Virus record (IMG/VR): IMGVR_UViG_3300045921_000191
Span: 32,001 to 96,000 of that record
Strand: one strand, 5' to 3'
DNA length: 64,000 nt
Source: a virus
Positions 1 to 60,682 of the stretch are shown one piece after another. A model generated the notes under the pieces. That model worked only from the letters and a program-made list of their open reading frames with translations, ran no database searches and was not told where the DNA came from. Each line of letters starts with the position of its first letter. Within the stretch, counting starts at the first letter, position 1. The position numbers and the translations under genes were made by a program.

Positions 1-463
1 TAACATCGGTGACGCAGTAAGTTCCTTCTGGATTCAAGCGAGACAAAACTCTATTAGAGAACGCTGCTTGAAGGTGCCAATCAGGATGTACTTTGTTGCG
101 AATAACTTCAGTTCCAACGAATTGAAGGATATGTCGAATAGACTTCATTGTGACGCCGACTACGCCATACTCTGTCACGGTATTGATGTTATAAGGAAAC
201 TCTTCTGTTGGAAGCGCTTGTACCATTAGGTTCAAAATTTCGCGAAGATGTTTTCTAGTAAAGGCGAACGGCTCTGCAAAAGGTTCAACCTTTTTAACTG
301 GATCTTCCATATCTTCACGCTTGATATTGAATACTTTGGCGCAAATATCTTTCATAGGGCCAGCGAAGCTGATCTTACCTTGAGAAAGTCCAATATCAGA
401 AAGTAGTTTTGCGGAAGCGTCTTTTCCACCACCAATAGGTGCAGTAAAGCTTACGATTTTCAT
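1..463 (-). CDS. Deoxynucleoside monophosphate kinase (3' end runs off the window)
   Basis: Not in the ORF track. Manual translation from ATG at 463: MKIVSFTAPIGGGKDASAKLL...KISFAGPMKDICAKVF...RHILQFVGTEVIRNKVHPDWH...CVTDV. P-loop variant plus the SFAxPxK, RxxLQxxGTE and V(T/S)DV motifs of phage dNMP kinases. Confidence 0.85.
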   Translation of the reverse strand, partial: MKIVSFTAPIGGGKDASAKLLSDIGLSQGKISFAGPMKDICAKVFNIKREDMEDPVKKVEPFAEPFAFTRKHLREILNLMVQALPTEEFPYNINTVTEYGVVGVTMKSIRHILQFVGTEVIRNKVHPDWHLQAAFSNRVLSRLNPEGTYCVTDV

Positions 464-651
464 TGATTATCTCGTTTTGCTGCTTGATAAATAGCGCGAG
501 GAGATCCCTTAGCATTAAAACGTTGATGAACGTTTTCTACCTTGCCATCTTCCATCAACTTACGACCGACTACTTTGTCGGTATATTGACGTGGAGCTTT
601 AGGGTCGAAACCTAATTCTTTACGAAGGGCTTTTGCCTTTTTGGTGCGCAT
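460..651 (-). CDS. Small basic hypothetical protein
   Basis: 63-aa ORF with a strong RBS (AGGAAAGGAAG), an upstream promoter and an ATGA overlap with the kinase gene. Confidence 0.7.
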   Translation of the reverse strand: MRTKKAKALRKELGFDPKAPRQYTDKVVGRKLMEDGKVENVHQRFNAKGSPRAIYQAAKRDNQ

Positions 652-2069: not shown

Positions 2070-2087
2070 CGACACTTTATTGTACCA

Positions 2088-4466
2088 CTATTTAGCTTCT
2101 GCAAAATTATCCCCAATTAAAGGTTCCGCTTTAATAGGAATATCAATTTGTCTGGTTACTTCGTTATTTTCCATAGCGTCTTTTAACATCTCAGCTACTA
2201 TCGAAGCTTGATCTTCCTTGACAATGCACGTTATTTCATCGTGGATGGTTAATGCTATCCAGCCATCAATATTGTGTTTTTTCATTTCTTTTGCAAGCTT
2301 AATCATAGCAGCATTACATACATGTGCTGCTGTTGCTTGAATGGGAAAGTTCTTAGAGTTATTTAAAAGATTACGATATTTGTAATAAATTTCACTGCCT
2401 AGCTGCTCGCCTAAGTGTTCTTTCATTAGTTTTTTACTTTTTAATAGGCCACGAAAACGTTCGTTTAACTCTTTGCATTTTGGAAGGTGACGCACTCTAC
2501 CAAATTTAGTTTTAACAAAGCCTTTTGTCGTTGCTTCGTATTCCTGATTACGCATGTATTTTTGCAATTCTGGATAAGCATTGAGATATCTATCAATGAT
2601 TTGTTGAGCGTCTTCTACTGGCACGCCCATAAGCTGGGCAATACGCCATGCGTTAGCGCCATAAACTACGGCAAGTGTAAACACTTTTGACTTCTGCCTG
2701 AAGTCGGGTTGAACTTTTTTTAGATAATTTTTGTCAGTCTCTTTAGCAGAAACGTCCTGCAAATCGAATACGTCAATTGCAATCTGCGAGTAAAGATCAA
2801 GCTCATTAAGCCAAACAGCCTTAAGTCCTGCATCACCTGATACCCACGAAAAGATCCTGGGTTCTAGTGCTGAAAAGTCGGCGTTGACAATCTTATAGCC
2901 CTCGGGGGCCACAAAGCCTTTTTTAATGCGTTTATCGTCGCGAGGCAAGGTTTGTAGGTTTAGTCCACCTGCGCATGAATAACGACCCGAAGTCGTTCCA
3001 AATTGAAGCATGGAGGGATACAGCCAGCCGTCAATCTGTTTTTCAAGAATGGGCTGAACGTAAGTAGACAATAACTTCTCTTGCTTCTTAAGTTCTGATA
3101 GTTTGGGAACAAATGGGAGATGATCGAAACCCTCTAAAGCTTCTTTATCAACTTTAGCGGCTCCAGTCTCTCGGGAATGGGATTTCGCCTTGCATCCATG
3201 ATGCTCAAAGAGCAACCAAGACAAGTGCGCATTAGATGACAAGTTGAATACTTCTGGTTTATCAGGATTCTTTTCAACAAAGATAGCCTTTTTCACCGCG
3301 TAAACAACTTCATCCTCGAGAGTGGGAGGATTTGGGTCCTCTAACACTCGCTTTACTTTTACAGGCATAATAGCTTTTGTGCCATCTTTTTGTTCAACTT
3401 CTTGCATCTCTTCGAACTCCTCGAAAGGAGGCTCGTAAAGAAGCCAAGTCAATGCTACATTGTCTGGATAATCAACTGCTAGAGACTGCAAAGCACTTTT
3501 AGCCAGTGTGGGCTTGCCCGTCTTCTTATTTGAAGGAATCGGGATCTTATAATAACGCAGCAACTCTTCAGCAAATCGTCCAGTCTTAGTGGCCTTAACG
3601 TGATCGTCGAGGTAAGACCGAATAAACGGCTGAATATCTTCTCGGATCAAGTCAAATACTTCGCCTGACAATCTCATTATATCAGAATTGATTTGCGTTT
3701 CCAAGTTTTTAAAATATTCTAGGTCAATCTTAAGTCCTTGAATTTTCATGGGAATTGTGACCAGCTTATAAAGGGGCATCACTTCTTGGTTATAAAAGAA
3801 GTCAGTCAGACCCTCTTTTTCCATCAATTTACTGAAGTACTCAAACAAGCGAAGGGTCAAATCCACGTCTGCACAGCAATACTTTCCGATGATTTCGACA
3901 TCAGCCTTGTAGATGTCCATTTGAGTCTTAGTAGCTTTACCGCCTGCCTTCGTAATAGACTCTTTAAGCTCGATCTGTTCTTGGTTGGCCACTTCCTCTT
4001 CTGGGATGCCAAGCTGCTCCTGGAGGTTCACAGCAACTTCTTTAAGGCCGAATGGACCCTCCTCATCGAGAGTATGCTTCATAAGGATCGTATCAGCGTA
4101 TAGGGCTGGTAAAAGGTTTACGCCGTAATAGTCTTCCATGACCGTGATATCGTACACGCCGTTGTGCATAATGAGCTTCTTTTTGATTAGAATCTCGCTC
4201 ATTGCCCAAATGAACTTTTCTTCGTCTTCCGCTGAAACAAGCCTAACTAGAGCTTGTGACGCGGCATCCCATTTCCAGAATGCCACATAAAAGCCCTGGT
4301 TAACATGACCAGTTACGCCAACGCCGATAACCCGCGCGCGCTTCTCCGTCGCAGAATCGGTTTCTAAGTCAAATGAAACATATTCACAAGTCTTGAGATA
4401 ACTCAAAACCTGTTGATACGTCTTATTTGTTAGAACGTTTACGTATTGCTTGCTCATCGATTTCAT
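2088..4466 (-). CDS. polA: DNA polymerase family A with 3'-5' exonuclease
   Basis: Exonuclease motifs FDLET, HNGVYD and YCCADV; GTTSGRYS..LNLQTLPR; motif A DFSALEPR; motif B RQKSKVFTLAVVYG; NFPIQATAA; motif C IHDEI. Confidence 0.95.
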   Translation of the reverse strand: MKSMSKQYVNVLTNKTYQQVLSYLKTCEYVSFDLETDSATEKRARVIGVGVTGHVNQGFYVAFWKWDAASQALVRLVSAEDEEKFIWAMSEILIKKKLIMHNGVYDITVMEDYYGVNLLPALYADTILMKHTLDEEGPFGLKEVAVNLQEQLGIPEEEVANQEQIELKESITKAGGKATKTQMDIYKADVEIIGKYCCADVDLTLRLFEYFSKLMEKEGLTDFFYNQEVMPLYKLVTIPMKIQGLKIDLEYFKNLETQINSDIMRLSGEVFDLIREDIQPFIRSYLDDHVKATKTGRFAEELLRYYKIPIPSNKKTGKPTLAKSALQSLAVDYPDNVALTWLLYEPPFEEFEEMQEVEQKDGTKAIMPVKVKRVLEDPNPPTLEDEVVYAVKKAIFVEKNPDKPEVFNLSSNAHLSWLLFEHHGCKAKSHSRETGAAKVDKEALEGFDHLPFVPKLSELKKQEKLLSTYVQPILEKQIDGWLYPSMLQFGTTSGRYSCAGGLNLQTLPRDDKRIKKGFVAPEGYKIVNADFSALEPRIFSWVSGDAGLKAVWLNELDLYSQIAIDVFDLQDVSAKETDKNYLKKVQPDFRQKSKVFTLAVVYGANAWRIAQLMGVPVEDAQQIIDRYLNAYPELQKYMRNQEYEATTKGFVKTKFGRVRHLPKCKELNERFRGLLKSKKLMKEHLGEQLGSEIYYKYRNLLNNSKNFPIQATAAHVCNAAMIKLAKEMKKHNIDGWIALTIHDEITCIVKEDQASIVAEMLKDAMENNEVTRQIDIPIKAEPLIGDNFAEAK

Positions 4467-6486
4467 CAGTTGACTTTCTAAGATTCAAACGGTCGGTCTG
4501 AACCACTTCTCCAGTGGATAATTTTTCCTTAAACATGGTAGGAGCTTTAAGCTTCAGTTGGGTGCAAATTTCTCGATATTCCACGTATTCTTGGAACGAT
4601 ATATCTCGGATTACACCCTTGATACCTTCCCACATAAATACACCTTCTTCAATTCGACCGCTTCGGTTTTTGCCGATGTAAAGGTGCATGTAATTATCAT
4701 AGTCTGGATTGGCCCCATCTGCAAGAGGTCTCCAACAGTTGATTACGCAAGTAGCGTTTTCTTCCCAAGCTCCTGATTCTTTTGCCACGCGAGAGGTACG
4801 CATTGGAGTCGTATGATCGCCTTGCTCTCTTGAGACCTGAGAAAGATAAATCAAGTGACAATTAGTGTTCTTAGCATTGTCGGAAGCCGTAACTGCGTTA
4901 TGAGTTGCGCTCATGTACGAGTTGTCTGCTTCTGAAGTTAGCTTACCCGCGTAATCGATGAAAGCAACTTCAATGCGAATGCCAAACTGCGCATTTGCGT
5001 TATTAATAGTTTCCACGATCTGCTCAGAAGTAACTGCTGAAGTAAAATCAAAAATGGTGTACGGAAGTCGCTCTTTAATAGCGGTCATCACAACTTGCAT
5101 GACACTTTCGTCGCGAGTGTGGATATTAAATGCTCTTTCTACTTCTTCTTGGGTATAGTTAGTGAATCGTGCTCCAAGCTTCTCGAACAAACTAGAATCC
5201 GCCATATCCATTGAGAACATGATGTTATAAATCTTCTGACGATTCAAATTCTCCATAATTTGAACTGCAAGACTAGTTTTACCAGAACCATTGGCCCCGT
5301 TGATAACCGAGAAGTTTTTGGGGCGAAGTCGGATACGCTCATCAAGCCATTTCAAACCCGTCTTAGGATACTGAAGCTGGGCTTCGTTACCGTATTTAAC
5401 GTAAATGTCACATAAGTCTTCTGCTCGAAACAATTTAGAAGAGCGCTGCTTATGTTCACATCCAGCGTGGCGACACCATTTCGCTATCTTAACGTCGTGA
5501 CATTTGTAAATGCCTCCGCGATAATTTTCGTTAGCATAAACCTGAGTAATAGGGCGCAAGAATTCCATTTCAGTAAAGTCTTTAACTTCGGGAAAGATAC
5601 GCTTTCGCTTCTCAAGTGCGGTGGCAATAATAGCCACACTCTGCTCTTGATCATATCCAGAGTATCGGTGGTAGGCCGCTAGATAGTTACAAGCTACTTC
5701 GCGTTCTCCAGGACCAAAATACCCATTCTCAAGCAAATGCACGCAACGACGCTTACCTTTGGGTACGTGAGCTAAAATCTCTTCTGGAGCTGGAACATCT
5801 TCTCCAGTTGCTGGCTTAACTAATTGGAGCTTGGTTTTAGGAGTCTCTGGGACTTTGTTGTAAGTTTCATACAACACGTCTACGTTCTGACGCTCAGTTT
5901 TGATCGCGATATCTCTAGGCTTAGCTGCCAAGAGTCTAATTTCTTTTTCACTCTTCTTCTCTACCTCAGAAAGGTCTAATTCGATTTTATACAAACCAGA
6001 CTTTTGATGCCTAGTGTTAGTGATTCGGAGGATGCGATTGACGTTGTAAACAGAAGCATCAAATACATCAGGATCTACATCTGCATCTTTGGCTAGGTTG
6101 TAGCAAATGTTTGCCGTCTCAATTGGAGTGAACTTTCTAGTAGTTTCCAGGAAAAGGTGAAACCCTTTATTGCCACTGAAGTAAACTCGAAGTCCTTTGT
6201 CCAAGCCAAGATCCGCAAGTTTATAAGCAAGCTTCATCAAGTTAGAATGAGCCTTCTTATAGTCGCCCTCTGCGTCCAAATCCCAATAAAGAGTATCTGT
6301 GTACACTTCTCCAGTGTACCCATTCACGCTATTGTTGTGAGTTTGAAAGTACTCAAATGCGTCTTCGCCGTAAATAAAAGTCGAGCAATACCAGTCAACA
6401 GTTCGGTCCAATACATTGGATTCGATCTGATCGATTGGCAGCAACTTGCCTTTATCTGCGACGGTTTTTGTCAACCGTCTGTACAT
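4423..6486 (-). CDS. AEP primase fused to a DnaB-like (SF4) helicase
   Basis: AEP motifs WDLD, FSGNKGFH and RILR; Cys-rich middle domain; Walker A GANGSGKT, FSMDM, FIDY, LSQVSR, SGAWEENA, IGKNRSG. Confidence 0.88.
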   Translation of the reverse strand: MYRRLTKTVADKGKLLPIDQIESNVLDRTVDWYCSTFIYGEDAFEYFQTHNNSVNGYTGEVYTDTLYWDLDAEGDYKKAHSNLMKLAYKLADLGLDKGLRVYFSGNKGFHLFLETTRKFTPIETANICYNLAKDADVDPDVFDASVYNVNRILRITNTRHQKSGLYKIELDLSEVEKKSEKEIRLLAAKPRDIAIKTERQNVDVLYETYNKVPETPKTKLQLVKPATGEDVPAPEEILAHVPKGKRRCVHLLENGYFGPGEREVACNYLAAYHRYSGYDQEQSVAIIATALEKRKRIFPEVKDFTEMEFLRPITQVYANENYRGGIYKCHDVKIAKWCRHAGCEHKQRSSKLFRAEDLCDIYVKYGNEAQLQYPKTGLKWLDERIRLRPKNFSVINGANGSGKTSLAVQIMENLNRQKIYNIMFSMDMADSSLFEKLGARFTNYTQEEVERAFNIHTRDESVMQVVMTAIKERLPYTIFDFTSAVTSEQIVETINNANAQFGIRIEVAFIDYAGKLTSEADNSYMSATHNAVTASDNAKNTNCHLIYLSQVSREQGDHTTPMRTSRVAKESGAWEENATCVINCWRPLADGANPDYDNYMHLYIGKNRSGRIEEGVFMWEGIKGVIRDISFQEYVEYREICTQLKLKAPTMFKEKLSTGEVVQTDRLNLRKSTDEIDEQAIRKRSNK

Positions 6487-6491
6487 TTTAA

Positions 6492-6944
6492 TTACCCCTC
6501 GATCAATGAAGCACTACCAACTACGAAGTCAGGAGATTCCTTGTGAGGTTTAAAATTGATATGAATCAAATCGCCATTGCGAAGTTCAAGTTCACGGTTT
6601 TCATCTTTTCCAAGATAGATCTGAAGACGAAGATCATATTCAAATTCTCTACCACCGCCGAGGTCTCTCAAATCATTAATGTCATTCTGACTAGTGCCTT
6701 TTTTCATGGCCATATTGCCAAGATAAAGACCCACATGACCTACTACGAAATCTGCGTCTTTTTCACGCGTTCCGAAGCGGAGATCAATACAAGCCCCGTT
6801 AGCCACCACAAGTTTGGTGTTAGGCATGTACAATTTAACATTCATTCCAAGACCCGATTTACGAAGTTCTTGAACAGCTTGCCTGTTTAGGCTCTTAGAA
6901 GCTGATACTGATCCAATATTAATAAAATTACCCTCTTTTGCCAT
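6492..6944 (-). CDS. Hypothetical protein with two internal repeats (possible ssDNA-binding protein)
   Basis: Halves align (NGACIDLRF..DFVVG / NGDLIHINF..DFVVG); located in the replication operon. Confidence 0.6.
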   Translation of the reverse strand: MAKEGNFINIGSVSASKSLNRQAVQELRKSGLGMNVKLYMPNTKLVVANGACIDLRFGTREKDADFVVGHVGLYLGNMAMKKGTSQNDINDLRDLGGGREFEYDLRLQIYLGKDENRELELRNGDLIHINFKPHKESPDFVVGSASLIEG

Positions 6945-6946
6945 GA

Positions 6947-7231
6947 CTAAACTCCTTCCTTAATGTGCGAAGACATAGGTTCTGTTGAGCGAAGAATTTG
7001 CTTTAACGCTGCTACAGAACTAGCATCCTTGAAAAGTTCTTTCCTGTCAAGTAGTGCTGCTGCTAAAATTGGTCCAGTGATATCTTCTTTACTTTTAGCA
7101 TCTTCTACTTTGAGATCTACGCCATTACGCAACAAGACAATAAGACCAGTCAAGGTAGTATAGCTAGACGCTTTGGTATCGTAGAGTTTTCGGTTAGAGT
7201 AACGCTTGATAACAACTTGTGTGTTTTCCAT
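6947..7231 (-). CDS. phaR: PhaR/PhbF-type (PHA accumulation regulator) DNA-binding domain protein
   Basis: IKRYSNRKLYDT..SSYTTL..L...G....V.DAKS.EDIT..IL matches the PhaR N-terminal signature. Confidence 0.85.
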   Translation of the reverse strand: MENTQVVIKRYSNRKLYDTKASSYTTLTGLIVLLRNGVDLKVEDAKSKEDITGPILAAALLDRKELFKDASSVAALKQILRSTEPMSSHIKEGV

Positions 7232-10713: not shown

Positions 10714-10913
10714 TTGTCGCTCGCTTCCTCGACTTTAGTAGGTACGATAGCAGAAGCCATACGGTCGGCCATGGCCTGCATTTGGCGCTCGTTTAGAGTA
10801 TCAACGATGAATTTCTCAAAGTCCTCTACCATACCTTTTCGAATATGTGGAATGCTGCCTTTATTAACTTGCCCGTGAAGAAACTCTAGAACCTTAAGTT
10901 TAATATCTTGCAT
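10710..10913 (-). CDS. Hypothetical protein
   Basis: 67-aa ORF, ATGA overlap with groEL, first gene of the operon. Confidence 0.65.
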   Translation of the reverse strand: MQDIKLKVLEFLHGQVNKGSIPHIRKGMVEDFEKFIVDTLNERQMQAMADRMASAIVPTKVEEASDK

Positions 10914-57662: not shown

Positions 57663-58046
57663 TTAGTGTTCGAGAATCACAACTTGAACGGTTGTAGCGC
57701 TAGTTTTGACTGCCATTGAAATTTTAGGATCACTTGATTGTCCCAAGAAAATTACTTCAGCGGAGTTTGGAGGAAGAGCAAATCCGTTAGTAATGTCTAC
57801 AGTTACAGGCGCTTCGTCAGCAGGTCCTGTCCAAACAAATGCAGTTGTTCCAGAAGTATTACAAGCTCTAATCATTGCGAAGTTTTCTAACGGCTTTAAA
57901 GTCGTAGAATTTGCAAGAATTTCTCGAATAGTTCCAGGCATTCCTTTAGTGCTTTTTGCAGACCCACTTTGATCATGATGTTCCATATTTGTGATGGAAC
58001 CTGGACTGCGAGATGTTTTTAATCCCAATCGTGAATTTTGGCTCAT
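57663..58046 (-). CDS. Decoration-like structural protein
   Basis: NGFALPPNS..I and VQVVILE, similar to its neighbours. Confidence 0.5.
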   Translation of the reverse strand: MSQNSRLGLKTSRSPGSITNMEHHDQSGSAKSTKGMPGTIREILANSTTLKPLENFAMIRACNTSGTTAFVWTGPADEAPVTVDITNGFALPPNSAEVIFLGQSSDPKISMAVKTSATTVQVVILEH

Positions 58047-58360
58047 TTGTCTTCCTCTTCTTCACCAGAAACATATTGTTTTTGGCTTCGATATTCTTTA
58101 GCTATTTTATCAAGCTTTTTTACGGATCTCTCAAGTTCGTTACGAAAAAAGAACCAAGCGTCTCGGTACTTCTTTTCATCACTGCGCATGAAATCCATTT
58201 GCAAGTCTCTGCCGACGCCGAGTGGATCTTCAAATAAAAAGACTGCCACAAGTCTATCGTTTTTGCCAAGAGAATGTTCCATACCCAAATACTTAAGACC
58301 TTGCCCAAGTAAGTATGGTGCAAGTGCTAAATTATCTGTTCTAAAGACTTTTTCCGACAT
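58043..58360 (-). CDS. Hypothetical protein (DUF5659-like)
   Basis: FRTDNLALAPYL...G.....FLFED pattern; AGGAG RBS. Confidence 0.55.
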   Translation of the reverse strand: MSEKVFRTDNLALAPYLLGQGLKYLGMEHSLGKNDRLVAVFLFEDPLGVGRDLQMDFMRSDEKKYRDAWFFFRNELERSVKKLDKIAKEYRSQKQYVSGEEEEDK

Positions 58361-58415
58361 TGCTTCTCCTGATAGCAGGATAACCTAATAATAACACACA
58401 AGCAAGGGGATTTAT

Positions 58416-58499
58416 AAGAGAAAGGTGCCCCTAGGAGAACCCTAGGGGCTTTAGGAAAGGAAGGCCAGAAAGACCTTACAAGGAGTTGCACCTTGCAAC
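58416..58499 (-). ncRNA. Candidate small RNA with three hairpins and an anti-SD-like linker
   Basis: Extended -10 TGaTATACT (58504-58512); hairpins CAAGG-TGCAACT-CCTTG, AAGGTC-TTTCT-GGCCTT and GCCCCTAGG-GTTCT-CCTAGGGGC; pyrimidine tail; no plausible ORF. Confidence 0.5.
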
Positions 58500-58516
58500 T
58501 TCGAGTATATCAGAAC

Positions 58517-59125
58517 TCAGAGAAACTTTCTCCATGACTCGTTTTGATACGTTCCGTCAAATCGGTTGCCTTTGGAATCGTTCTCAAAGGCTGATAAATA
58601 TTGGAGATTAGCTGGAACATGTAGGCCGCAAACATCATCGCTTTCCAAGGGAATTATGTGATCAACGTGATATCCTTTTGGGCAATTGGCATAAATCTCT
58701 TTTAGTACTTTACGGTCAATCCAAGGAGGGGTGGCTTGTTTCTTAAGGGCTCTACGGTAGGCTGATTTTTCTCGATTAACAGCTTTACCTTTTTCAGTTT
58801 TGATATATTTTCGGTTGTGTGCGTTTATCCTGTCTTTATTAGCTCTTTGATAAATTCTGTGAGAGTCTTTTATATGTTGAGCGTTGTCTTTTCGCCAAAC
58901 TTCCATGATTAGTTTCTGTTTATTTTTATCGCGAGTTTCTACGGCATATTTCAAATGCTCTGCACAACGGGTACGACTTGTTAAACATTTATTTTGACAA
59001 CCAGTAGTAGCTGTACATAGTCCTAACTCTTTCTTCCATAAAACCATAAACTTAGATTTAGTTAGACCAAGTGCTTCTGCGGCTTTTCTTATAGATCCTG
59101 TTTCTTTTAATTTTTCATCATACAT
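58517..59125 (-). CDS. Free-standing HNH homing endonuclease
   Basis: ATPPW...YHVDHIIPL...VCGLHVPANLQYL...N..KGN. Confidence 0.88.
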   Translation of the reverse strand: MYDEKLKETGSIRKAAEALGLTKSKFMVLWKKELGLCTATTGCQNKCLTSRTRCAEHLKYAVETRDKNKQKLIMEVWRKDNAQHIKDSHRIYQRANKDRINAHNRKYIKTEKGKAVNREKSAYRRALKKQATPPWIDRKVLKEIYANCPKGYHVDHIIPLESDDVCGLHVPANLQYLSAFENDSKGNRFDGTYQNESWRKFL

Positions 59126-59230: not shown

Positions 59231-60682
59231 TTATGCCGCACGGCCAATGTTTTCAAAAATGAAACATTTACGGGGAGCAAACACAATTGGACAACCGTAA
59301 AGCAGTTGCATCCAACGGTAAGACGTTGCAATGATTGCCAAATCCATCTTCATCAGAGGAGCCAATTGCTTAAAGCGCATGACTTCTGAATCATTGCTCA
59401 ACAAGAAGGCTTGAGCCAGACCAGGCAATTTGTGGTTTGCGTCCACGAAGGTAGCAGCGCCGCCAACAGCAGCAGGAGCAACATAACCGATAAACTCATG
59501 ATTAGCACCAGCGCCGTCTTTAGGAGAACGGTACACAGCGTAAGCAATAGCGCCAGCGGTAGCAGCAATCGTAAGAGTAACAGCGTCACCAGCGGCAACA
59601 GTTACGTCCGACGTAGCGGCGCTGGCAGGACCTTCGCCAGCGTCAGTAAGTGCAGTAATGCGGTAATCGTAATCACCAGCATCAGCGGCAGCAAACTTGC
59701 TCAAAGCGTTAGGAGCAGCAGCAACAGTAGGAACAGCGGGAGTGGTTGCATGAACGGGAGCACGGGGAGTGCGAAGAGGACGCAAGAACACGTCGCTCAT
59801 AAGTTGGAATTCGCCAGCAGCAGCCACAAAGGACTGAAGCACAAAACCAGCTTTACCGTTTTGAACGCCCATAGGATTAACGCGCTCTTTAGGATAAAAT
59901 TGACGACCAAGATCGCTATGCGATTTAGTGTCAAGCATCATGAGGTTGGCCAAACCGAAGTTCTCGCTAACTACTCGTGCGCCGTCTTCCAAAGCATCTT
60001 CGTCAAGAACGTCAGCGCGTTGATCGCGAATAACGTCTTCAGCAATGCCATATCCAACGAAAGCTTTTGCTTGAGCCGAAGCATCAGCGTTGCCTTTGCG
60101 AATTTGTTTGTCAAGACCATCCCAAGCGTTATCAGCATCAAGAACGGCAGCGTCAGAACCATTAAACTGACCAGCCGAGCTGTAGTGACCACGACCGTCA
60201 AACAAAGCTCGCTCAACGATTTCGAGGATACGCATAGTACCGTTACGAATTTCACGAGCGATGGCGTCACCGTGAGCGTTTCGAACTAGCGTGTAAACGT
60301 GAGTCAATTCACGGGTAACACCCACAAATCGAACGCGTTGGATTTGACGGCTGTAGCTAGCGTCTTCAGAACGGGGCAGAGCGCCTTCGTTAATGAAGCC
60401 ACGACCTTGATCGCCGAAAGCGTCAACTCGATTGTATTGTTCAATCGTGTTGTAAGCTTGATCTTTAGCAATGATCGGCCACAGTTTGATTTGTTTCATT
60501 TCATAGGTAACGGATTTCAAGCTAGAATCCAGAGATTCTACCTGAAGGACGCCGCCGCCCGAAAGGGCAGTCGGAGCACCAGCGTACCCAGCGCCAGCAC
60601 TAAGGGCTTTGTTCAGTTCTTCTACTTCAGCAGCAGAAGCCTGTCCAGTTCCTTCGCCAAAGTTTACAAAATTATATTCCAT
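59231..60682 (-). CDS. Major capsid protein (SPO1/Twort-like HK97 fold with an Fn3-like insertion)
   Basis: ELNKALSAG...GGGVLQVESLD, EQYNR, F..EG, ERALFDG, WDGL, QLAPLMKMDLA; strong codon bias; follows protease and scaffold. Confidence 0.92.
   Translation of the reverse strand: MEYNFVNFGEGTGQASAAEVEELNKALSAGAGYAGAPTALSGGGVLQVESLDSSLKSVTYEMKQIKLWPIIAKDQAYNTIEQYNRVDAFGDQGRGFINEGALPRSEDASYSRQIQRVRFVGVTRELTHVYTLVRNAHGDAIAREIRNGTMRILEIVERALFDGRGHYSSAGQFNGSDAAVLDADNAWDGLDKQIRKGNADASAQAKAFVGYGIAEDVIRDQRADVLDEDALEDGARVVSENFGLANLMMLDTKSHSDLGRQFYPKERVNPMGVQNGKAGFVLQSFVAAAGEFQLMSDVFLRPLRTPRAPVHATTPAVPTVAAAPNALSKFAAADAGDYDYRITALTDAGEGPASAATSDVTVAAGDAVTLTIAATAGAIAYAVYRSPKDGAGANHEFIGYVAPAAVGGAATFVDANHKLPGLAQAFLLSNDSEVMRFKQLAPLMKMDLAIIATSYRWMQLLYGCPIVFAPRKCFIFENIGRAA

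Follow-up and report, generated by a model that had tools for sequence, protein, structure and literature searches.

A diverged copy of a predicted phage small-RNA family whose open linker may pair with Shine-Dalgarno regions

Results

An RNA element in the gap behind the capsid gene

The window analysed here is a 64,000-nt stretch (bases 32,001-96,000) of the 110,655-bp IMG/VR virus record IMGVR_UViG_3300045921_000191, in which direct terminal repeats are present. A minus-strand gap of 156 nt (58361-58516), downstream of the major capsid protein gene, holds an element that comparison with related phages confirms, at the level of sequence, as a real, conserved structured RNA of a new phage family with a predicted length of about 80-95 nt. 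The window copy appears to be a diverged member of this family, and the best explanation, held with about as much doubt as confidence, is that an open linker in the RNA pairs in trans with Shine-Dalgarno (SD) regions and blocks translation starts. An earlier note on this DNA, made from the letters, had proposed a phage small RNA (sRNA) at this place, and on reading the sequence all of the minus-strand features that it listed were found where it had put them. The parts of the window copy, in the direction of transcription, are as follows.

58512-58504, minus strand: extended -10 TGATATACT (TGaTATACT), homologous in position to TGTTATATT of the relatives
58497-58491 / 58483-58477, minus strand: hairpin H1 of 7 bp with a CAAGG/CCUUG core and loop UGCAACU, from the minimum-free-energy fold
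58500-58484, minus strand: alternative palindromic hairpin AGUUGCA-AGG-UGCAACU, read from the sequence and mutually exclusive with H1
58477-58472 / 58466-58461, minus strand: hairpin H2, AAGGUC-UUUCU-GGCCUU, from the fold
58460-58450, minus strand: pyrimidine-rich linker CCUUUCCUAAA, predicted to be unpaired (probability ~0.9), the proposed seed
58449-58427, minus strand: terminator hairpin H3 with 9 G+C-rich bp, GCCCCUAGG-GUUCU-CCUAGGGGC, from the fold and a simple terminator scan
58416-58426, minus strand: 3' tail ACCUUUCUCUU, a weak U-tract compared with U6-U7 in the core relatives

As an 87-nt RNA the window copy is predicted to form three hairpins and an unpaired linker (z = -3.7), and none of 200 shuffles folds as well. 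The 5-bp core of H1 lies at 58495-58491 and 58483-58479, and its loop, UGCAACU, holds the GCAA that is conserved in the family. The loop of H2 is UUUCU and not C-rich, where the core relatives have CCCCUCC. The pyrimidine stretch, which the earlier note took for an anti-SD seed, is anti-SD-like in the family as well as here (CCUUUC in the window linker, CCUCC in the core), and the seed in this phage is given as CCUUUCCUA; the sequence directly after H3 is ACCUUUCUCU. A coding reading of the 54-amino-acid GTG frame across the element was rejected, as by inspection the frame is not kept in the relatives and the loop indels are seemingly not multiples of three. ARAGORN found no tRNA or tmRNA and no tRNA-like gene.

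Conservation and covariation in related phages

The loci of relatives were fetched from viral and metagenome collections with the downstream protein and the capsid as anchors, and a homologue of the element occupies the same place in at least 11 related contigs. Nine of these members (L013, L014, L016-L020, L028 and L029) make up the core group, and the other two, L008 (the same contig as L005) and L027, are intermediate types between the window copy and the core. The family is small and its members are partly closely related; a rescan based on the capsid gave no new members. Several close relatives (L003, L004, L009, L011, L012, L025 and L026) do not have the element.

In the core group a promoter with TTGAAA, a spacing of 17-18 nt and the near-invariant TGTTATATT precedes the structure. 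H1 has 5-6 bp, compensatory changes in the stem and a GCAAN loop closed by C-G, and H2, immediately adjacent, has 6-11 bp and the C-rich loop already mentioned. The sequence of the H2 stem is wholly different between members and always pairs (GUGAUC/GAUCAC, GUAACUGA/UCAGUUAC and GAUGAUUAAAU/AUUUAAUCAUU among others). The core linker, UUCCUCCUCCUUGG, is unpaired and carries UUCCUCCUCCUU, the ribosomal anti-SD sequence, and H3 has 10 bp, the loop GUUCU and then U6-U7. Across the family the linker is 12-15 nt long, unpaired and C/U-rich, with CCUUUCCUAAA in the window where the core has CCUCCUCC, and the GUUCU loop of H3 is invariant in 12/12 members. The T-loop label that the earlier note gave to H1 does not suit the family, whose loops (GCAAU, GCAAG, GCAAC and GCAAA) are closed by C-G and have no U1/A5; only the UGCAACU of the window could fit it.

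The three hairpins were recovered by RNAalifold from a plain MAFFT alignment, with double changes at 15/20 pairs. A model-based alignment, which favours the structure through being fitted to the model but disfavours it through misaligning H1 and H2 of the window copy and of L008, had 94.6% of its cells paired and compensatory changes at 15/20 pairs. Its covariation score was 0.595 versus 0.312 in shuffles, with 0/500 shuffles reaching any of the measures, and sliding the 3' partners by 1-3 columns reduced pairing to 34-53% and the covarying pairs to 3-4. Every member folded alone takes the same shape (z from -3.2 to -4.4). G.U pairs are frequent on the gene-sense strand (e.g., columns 17/31 and 86/94), which indicates that the fold works as an RNA of that strand and not as a DNA cruciform. 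The discrete structured unit expected by the earlier note, conserved and covarying among related phages, is therefore borne out, with a promoter and a terminator of its own in the relatives.

Mean pairwise identities among the nine core members were 1.00 for the H3 loop, 0.91 for the -10, 0.77 for the linker, 0.58 for the H1 stem, 0.52 for the 5' leader and 0.41 for the H2 loop; the third codon positions at the 3' end of the adjacent capsid gene had an identity of 0.70 (six core members). Sequence conservation thus falls on the -10, the linker and the H3 loop; in the H1 stem the letters change and the pairing stays.

A covariance model built from the family (R1) finds one copy in this genome. 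The window copy has the lowest score of the members, 54.8 bits (E ~1e-11), and the others score 66-107 bits. A scan of viral contigs with a stricter terminator pattern returned many plain terminators and three further probable members, all on unrelated viral contigs.

L064, 5127-5217: R1 45.9 bits
L127, 12553-12639, minus strand: R1 43 bits
L154, 5004-5103: R1 39 bits

Each has a hairpin, a pyrimidine-rich stretch (UCUCUCUCCUUGA, ACUUCCUCA and CCUUUUAUUCCUU, respectively) and a terminator with a GUUCU loop, and the three may belong to this RNA class as more distant relatives. The looser form of the pattern gave mostly noise among the matches listed for viral contigs. In 185,579 bacterial genomes the terminator pattern gave 48 matches, all of them generic terminators except L217, which is the L029 contig binned into a metagenome-assembled genome (MAG) labelled Proteobacteria bacterium SG_bin7 (weak evidence on the host). 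A search of 20 relatives of this MAG found no copy of the element, and the 16S gene of the MAG is partial and without its 3' end. A weak R1 match (30.8 bits) lies at L228:1500-1640 in the bacterial genome G024, which is related to MAG SG_bin7; it consists of a C-rich stretch, UCAUUCCCCUUA, before a terminator and after a structured-looking region.

An architectural variant was observed at L002:7269-7406. This 120-nt unit, though built differently, follows the family's principle: a TGaTATAAT promoter, a pair of long hairpins whose loops are C-rich, and a U7 terminator. It folds with z = -7.3. The unpaired part of its linker is UCCUUUCG, which together with the preceding stem reads ACCUCCUUUC. 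The unit is placed after an insert of 554 amino acids and before small zinc-ribbon open reading frames (ORFs).

Rfam at gathering thresholds gave no match in the whole window, and a permissive search of the window region, up to E = 10, gave no sRNA match and only chance-level matches on the opposite strand. Sub-threshold Rfam similarities of the L018 copy were to anti-hemB, CyaR, mmgR, the Betaproteobacteria toxic sRNA, sX13 and ar14 (12.6-25 bits versus thresholds of 41-59), all of them C-rich or anti-SD sRNAs.

Genomic setting

Throughout the family the element lies between the capsid gene, or an HNH insert behind it, and a DUF5659-like gene on the same strand, and the window copy has the same position. 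Its neighbours are listed here.

59231..60682, minus strand: major capsid protein gene, upstream of the HNH ORF
59198-59169, minus strand: strong terminator of the capsid gene, from a simple terminator scan
59160-59132, minus strand: sigma70-like promoter with TG, upstream of the HNH ORF, for the HNH gene
58517..59125, minus strand: HNH / endonuclease VII-like homing endonuclease ORF of 202 amino acids (PHROG 1035, 7091, 12400)
58405-58377, minus strand: promoter-like TTGCTT-17-TATCCT of the 105-amino-acid gene, homologous to TTGCCT-17-TAGTCT/TAACCT of the relatives
58370-58365, minus strand: SD AGGAGA of the 105-amino-acid gene, read from the sequence
58043..58360, minus strand: conserved gene of 105 amino acids (DUF5659 match, weak), next downstream of the RNA in every member

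The capsid protein shares ~35% identity with its counterparts in SPO1-like Bacillus phages; within a small group of uncultured contigs the figure is ~72-76% for most and 65% for L005. Near and distant DNA searches with this region and with the L018 copy gave no match in cultured phages. As an insert, the HNH ORF separates the capsid terminator from the RNA promoter. Homologues at the same site occur in L013, L026, L015, L009 and L018, with 43-65% identity between copies, and are absent from L014, L016, L017, L019, L020, L029 and L008. The HNH gene stands upstream of the element only in the window, L013 and L018, and elsewhere the element directly follows the capsid terminator; conversely, L009 and L026 bear the HNH gene and do not have the element. 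Because the two occur independently, the element is backbone DNA and not a part of the mobile endonuclease. With its own promoter, the HNH gene has repeatedly occupied the post-capsid gap in some members of the phage group and is missing from others, and in this it behaves like a free-standing homing endonuclease. In L013 and L018 the -35 of the RNA promoter lies within the last HNH codons.

The linker and its candidate targets

The earlier note had singled out one pairing for the linker. CUUCCUUUCCUA (58463-58452) is an exact 12-nt complement of UAGGAAAGGAAG, the ribosome-binding site (RBS) of a small ORF, and the match also takes 3 nt of the 3' arm of H2.

667-656, minus strand: UAGGAAAGGAAG, RBS of an ORF of 63 amino acids, 4 nt before its ATG

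This ORF (460..651, minus strand) encodes a very basic protein, lies in front of the dNMP kinase gene and has its own TTGACT-17-TAGTCT promoter; no Pfam or PHROG match was found for it. The second match named in the earlier note, upstream of the gene at 10913, is present as AGGAAAGG at 10936-10929 (minus strand), at a distance of 15 nt from the ATG that is far for an SD. Chance readily gives a match of this length: when the RNA was dinucleotide-shuffled 1000 times, 69% of the shuffles had a complement of 12 nt or longer somewhere in the 110-kb genome.

Candidate targets were ranked over a crude set of 182 start regions, consisting of the longest non-overlapping ORFs with the start chosen by an SD-based rule. 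When the 14-nt linker was scored as a simple duplex, the site at 656-667 was the best (-19.0 kcal/mol), and the next five were plus-strand genes at 2.1-7.9 kb of the genome with (U/A)(A/G)GGAAAGGGA ~9 nt before the ATG. Composition-preserving shuffles of the linker reached the best duplex in 5/1000 cases and the sum of the top five in 0/1000. The left-arm targets include DUF932, zincin-like MPTase-PolyVal and HATPase_c proteins. Outside the window, at genome positions 2,079-6,990 (L225), six plus-strand left-arm genes share the RBS (A/G)GGAAAGGGA ~9 nt before the ATG. Three of these six genes stand behind TTGACA/TTGACG-type promoters with extended -10 boxes (TGaTATTAT, TGaTATTAG and TGcTATGCT). 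The -10 of the element resembles the sigma70-type early promoters of the phage, and the 'late' timing assigned to the RNA in the earlier note is not supported.

A second ranking used the cofold ΔΔG of the 81-nt RNA with each start region, in which intramolecular structure is counted. Here the site at 656-667 falls to rank 12/182 (-12.3), because three of its 12 pairs must open H2. The left-arm genes make up five of the top nine regions (hypergeometric p = 0.0012) and seven of the top fifteen (p = 0.00036). When the 11 unpaired linker bases were shuffled in place, the best value was reached by 6/44 shuffles, while the top-5 and top-10 sums were reached by 0/44 (top-10 sum of -147 versus a mean of -119).

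The match between linker and RBS type extends, in coarse form, across genomes. GGAAAGG occurs in 9/182 start regions here versus 2/200, 0/72 and 1/138 in three relatives. The top-5 duplex sums are as follows.

Window linker: -80.7 in its own genome, -61 to -69 in the relatives
Core linkers: -78 to -83 in the core genomes, -69 to -75 in this genome

Only half of the genome is present in G002, which is uninformative for the target test. Overall, the linker complements the special RBS type that is commonest in this phage.

Many bacterial 16S rRNAs end in GAUCACCUCCUUUCU / CACCUCCUUUCU-3'. If this end holds, the core linkers copy the CCUCCU of the 16S tail, and the linkers of the window and of L002 copy CCUUUC.

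Discussion

The combination of a conserved fold, a promoter and terminator in the relatives and a linker fitted to the phage's own RBSs is consistent with a stand-alone unit, placed after the major capsid gene or the HNH insert and composed of an extended -10 promoter, H1, H2, the linker and the H3 terminator. The RNA would be made and would pair in trans, through the linker, with purine-rich SD regions and so occlude ribosome binding; in the core members the C-rich loop of H2 would pair as well. As the open stretch mirrors ribosome-binding sites, it is translation starts that the RNA probably blocks. In this phage the linker would best fit the (A/G)GGAAAGGGA RBSs of the left-arm genes (presumed to be early and accessory) together with the RBS of ORF 460..651. 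The RNA may thus damp left-arm messages, with leaders of the AGGAAAGGGA type as candidate targets, and host messages are equally possible targets. Part of the transcripts may read through into the downstream gene, as the weak U-tail suggests.

Several observations weigh against this reading, some of which concern the unit itself. The window copy has no -35 that can be recognised, as the HNH reading frame runs to 4 nt before the TG, and the extended -10 pattern is not enriched in the window (7 matches versus 4.3 expected). It also lacks the CCUCC and CCCC motifs that define the core group, and behind its H3 only three U follow ACC, which falls short as a U-tract. Other points concern the targets. 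The start regions were crudely defined, the left-arm RBSs resemble each other and so are not independent targets, and any anti-SD-like sequence matches many RBSs, which makes the specificity for early genes weak evidence. The shuffle test in G001 was not significant (57/100 for the linker and 48/100 for the loop). Conservation of the proposed pair of sRNA and target was not found across the genomes; what is found is a coarse match of linker type to RBS type. The site at 656-667 is not accepted as the target, given its cofold rank, the failure to find an orthologue of the 63-amino-acid ORF in the five related records G001-G005 and the different arrangement in the complete relative G001, where the corresponding region holds other, translationally coupled genes. 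Of the pairing proposed in the earlier note, what stands is that the linker fits the phage's own class of RBS better than shuffled linkers do; its particular site does not.

It is unlikely that the element is only passive punctuation, with hairpins that end the very abundant transcripts of the capsid or HNH gene, stabilise their 3' ends and shield the operon that follows, and with a linker that has no function in trans. The terminator-like H3 and the position between two transcription units would suit such a cassette, and terminators with a G+C-rich stem and a GUUCU loop also stand behind ordinary genes in unrelated viral and bacterial contigs. However, the capsid gene already has a strong terminator upstream of the element, in the relatives as well, and the element stands behind a conserved promoter. 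Termination does not require H1 and H2, yet compensatory changes maintain both. Sequence is retained in the linker and in the GCAA and GUUCU loops, against drift in the H1 stem, the leader and the H2 loop.

There is likewise reason to doubt that the RNA acts as a protein decoy or mimic of the 16S 3' end, in which a (GAUCAC)UUCCUCCU or ACCUCCUUUC tail would titrate a host factor (e.g., a ribosome-maturation factor, S1 or S21, an RNase or an rRNA-cleaving defence toxin) and no mRNA would be paired. GAUCAC forms the 3' arm of H2 directly before CCUCCU in six members, the L002 variant contains ACCUCCUUUC, and the invariance of the GUUCU and GCAA loops points to protein contacts or tertiary ones. 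Against this, other members have swapped GAUCAC for unrelated sequences with compensating 5' arms, which identifies it as a stem and not as a recognised sequence; the window copy has neither GAUCA nor CCUCC, and no candidate partner protein was identified.

A third explanation, that HNH insertion crippled the window copy and left a decaying relic, at most a leader or 3' untranslated region, is also improbable. It would account for the lowest model score among the members (54.8 bits), for the -35 lost where the HNH frame ends, for a tail of ACCUUUCUCU in place of U7 and for the missing C-rich H2 loop and CCUCC, and several close relatives do without the element altogether. Yet the three hairpins are intact at z = -3.7, the changes that separate H2 and H3 from those of L008, the closest copy, are compensated, and L013 and L018 keep the full promoter despite their HNH insertion. 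The linker, moreover, fits its own RBS type better than all of the shuffles tested (top-5 sums). Finally, the DNA operator that the earlier note had raised as a caveat, with the palindrome AGTTGCA-N3-TGCAACT (58484-58500) binding a dimeric regulator, is scarcely credible: this perfect 7+7 inverted repeat does overlap the predicted transcription start, but it is the only copy in the window, with nothing beyond chance expectation even at three mismatches, and no other member of the family has it. The H1 hairpins of those members contain G.U pairs and so work only as RNA.

As a putative RNA that blocks translation starts through an open linker, the element invites comparison with several known regulators. 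RsaE/RoxS of the Firmicutes uses C-rich motifs, unpaired or in loops, to pair with G-rich SD regions in several mRNAs and block translation (PMC2790875, PMC4409812). The element shares with it the form of a short hairpin RNA with an exposed pyrimidine motif and an intrinsic terminator; unlike RsaE/RoxS it is phage-encoded and lies beside a capsid gene, has no similarity to it in sequence or model, and in the window carries CCUUUCC and not CCCC/UCCC. sX13 of Xanthomonas is an sRNA with a C-rich seed (PMC3771888). Like sX13 (RF02232), ar14/'cuckoo', mmgR (RF00519), anti-hemB (RF02837) and the Betaproteobacteria toxic sRNA (RF02278), the element displays C-rich or CCUCC-type motifs on two or three hairpins, but these are chromosomal proteobacterial RNAs and the window copy matches none of them. 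Among phage RNAs, the c4 antisense RNA of P1/P7 masks the ant ribosome-binding site, around which its exposed sequences pair, and blocks translation (PMC12197685). It differs from the element in being processed from the operon of its target, within the immunity circuit of a temperate phage, whereas the element would be a stand-alone promoter-terminator unit whose seed is anti-SD-like and generic, in a phage that is large and probably virulent. T4 RegB, a protein, is an endoribonuclease that cuts GGAG. The proposed outcome is alike, in that early phage messages would be inactivated through their SD; the proposed agent here is a base-pairing RNA.

In a literature search no phage RNA family displaying an anti-SD sequence came up, and a review of the field describes mainly regulatory RNAs of prophages and temperate phages (PMC12197685). 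Few regulatory RNAs are known from virulent phages, and the family offers a testable candidate for RNA-based control of translation in infection at a fixed place beside the capsid gene. From one phage to another the linker changes broadly along with RBS type and so provides a natural series of compensatory mutations, and the covariance model R1 can be used to flag the element in other uncultured phage genomes.

A broader and speculative idea, to which only a small probability is given, is that such phages encode a mimic of the anti-SD tail that is abundant, driven by a strong promoter of its own and in competition with the 30S subunit for SDs, with a linker that tracks the RBS type to be silenced (CCUUUCC versus GGAAAGG here). 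If true, SD-led translation of host and early phage messages would be lowered globally and leaderless phage messages would be spared. Leaderless messages may be immune, as the earlier note supposed. In the core members a second promoter, for the downstream gene, follows the element; in all nine the DUF5659-like gene has TTGCCT/TTGTCT-17-TAGTCT or TAACCT, and the -10 hexamer lies 6-7 nt before the ATG in 9/9, so that a leaderless message is implied beside a CCUCC-bearing RNA. An SD leader precedes the downstream gene in the window, L008 and L027, where the linker has no CCUCC; this split follows the phylogeny and therefore counts as one event. Candidate leaderless genes, in the core relatives and in this phage, have sigma70-like -35 and -10 boxes with the -10 hexamer 6-8 nt before the ATG. 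Those of this phage are several small genes, at genome positions 13,895, 22,054, 94,974 and 104,081.

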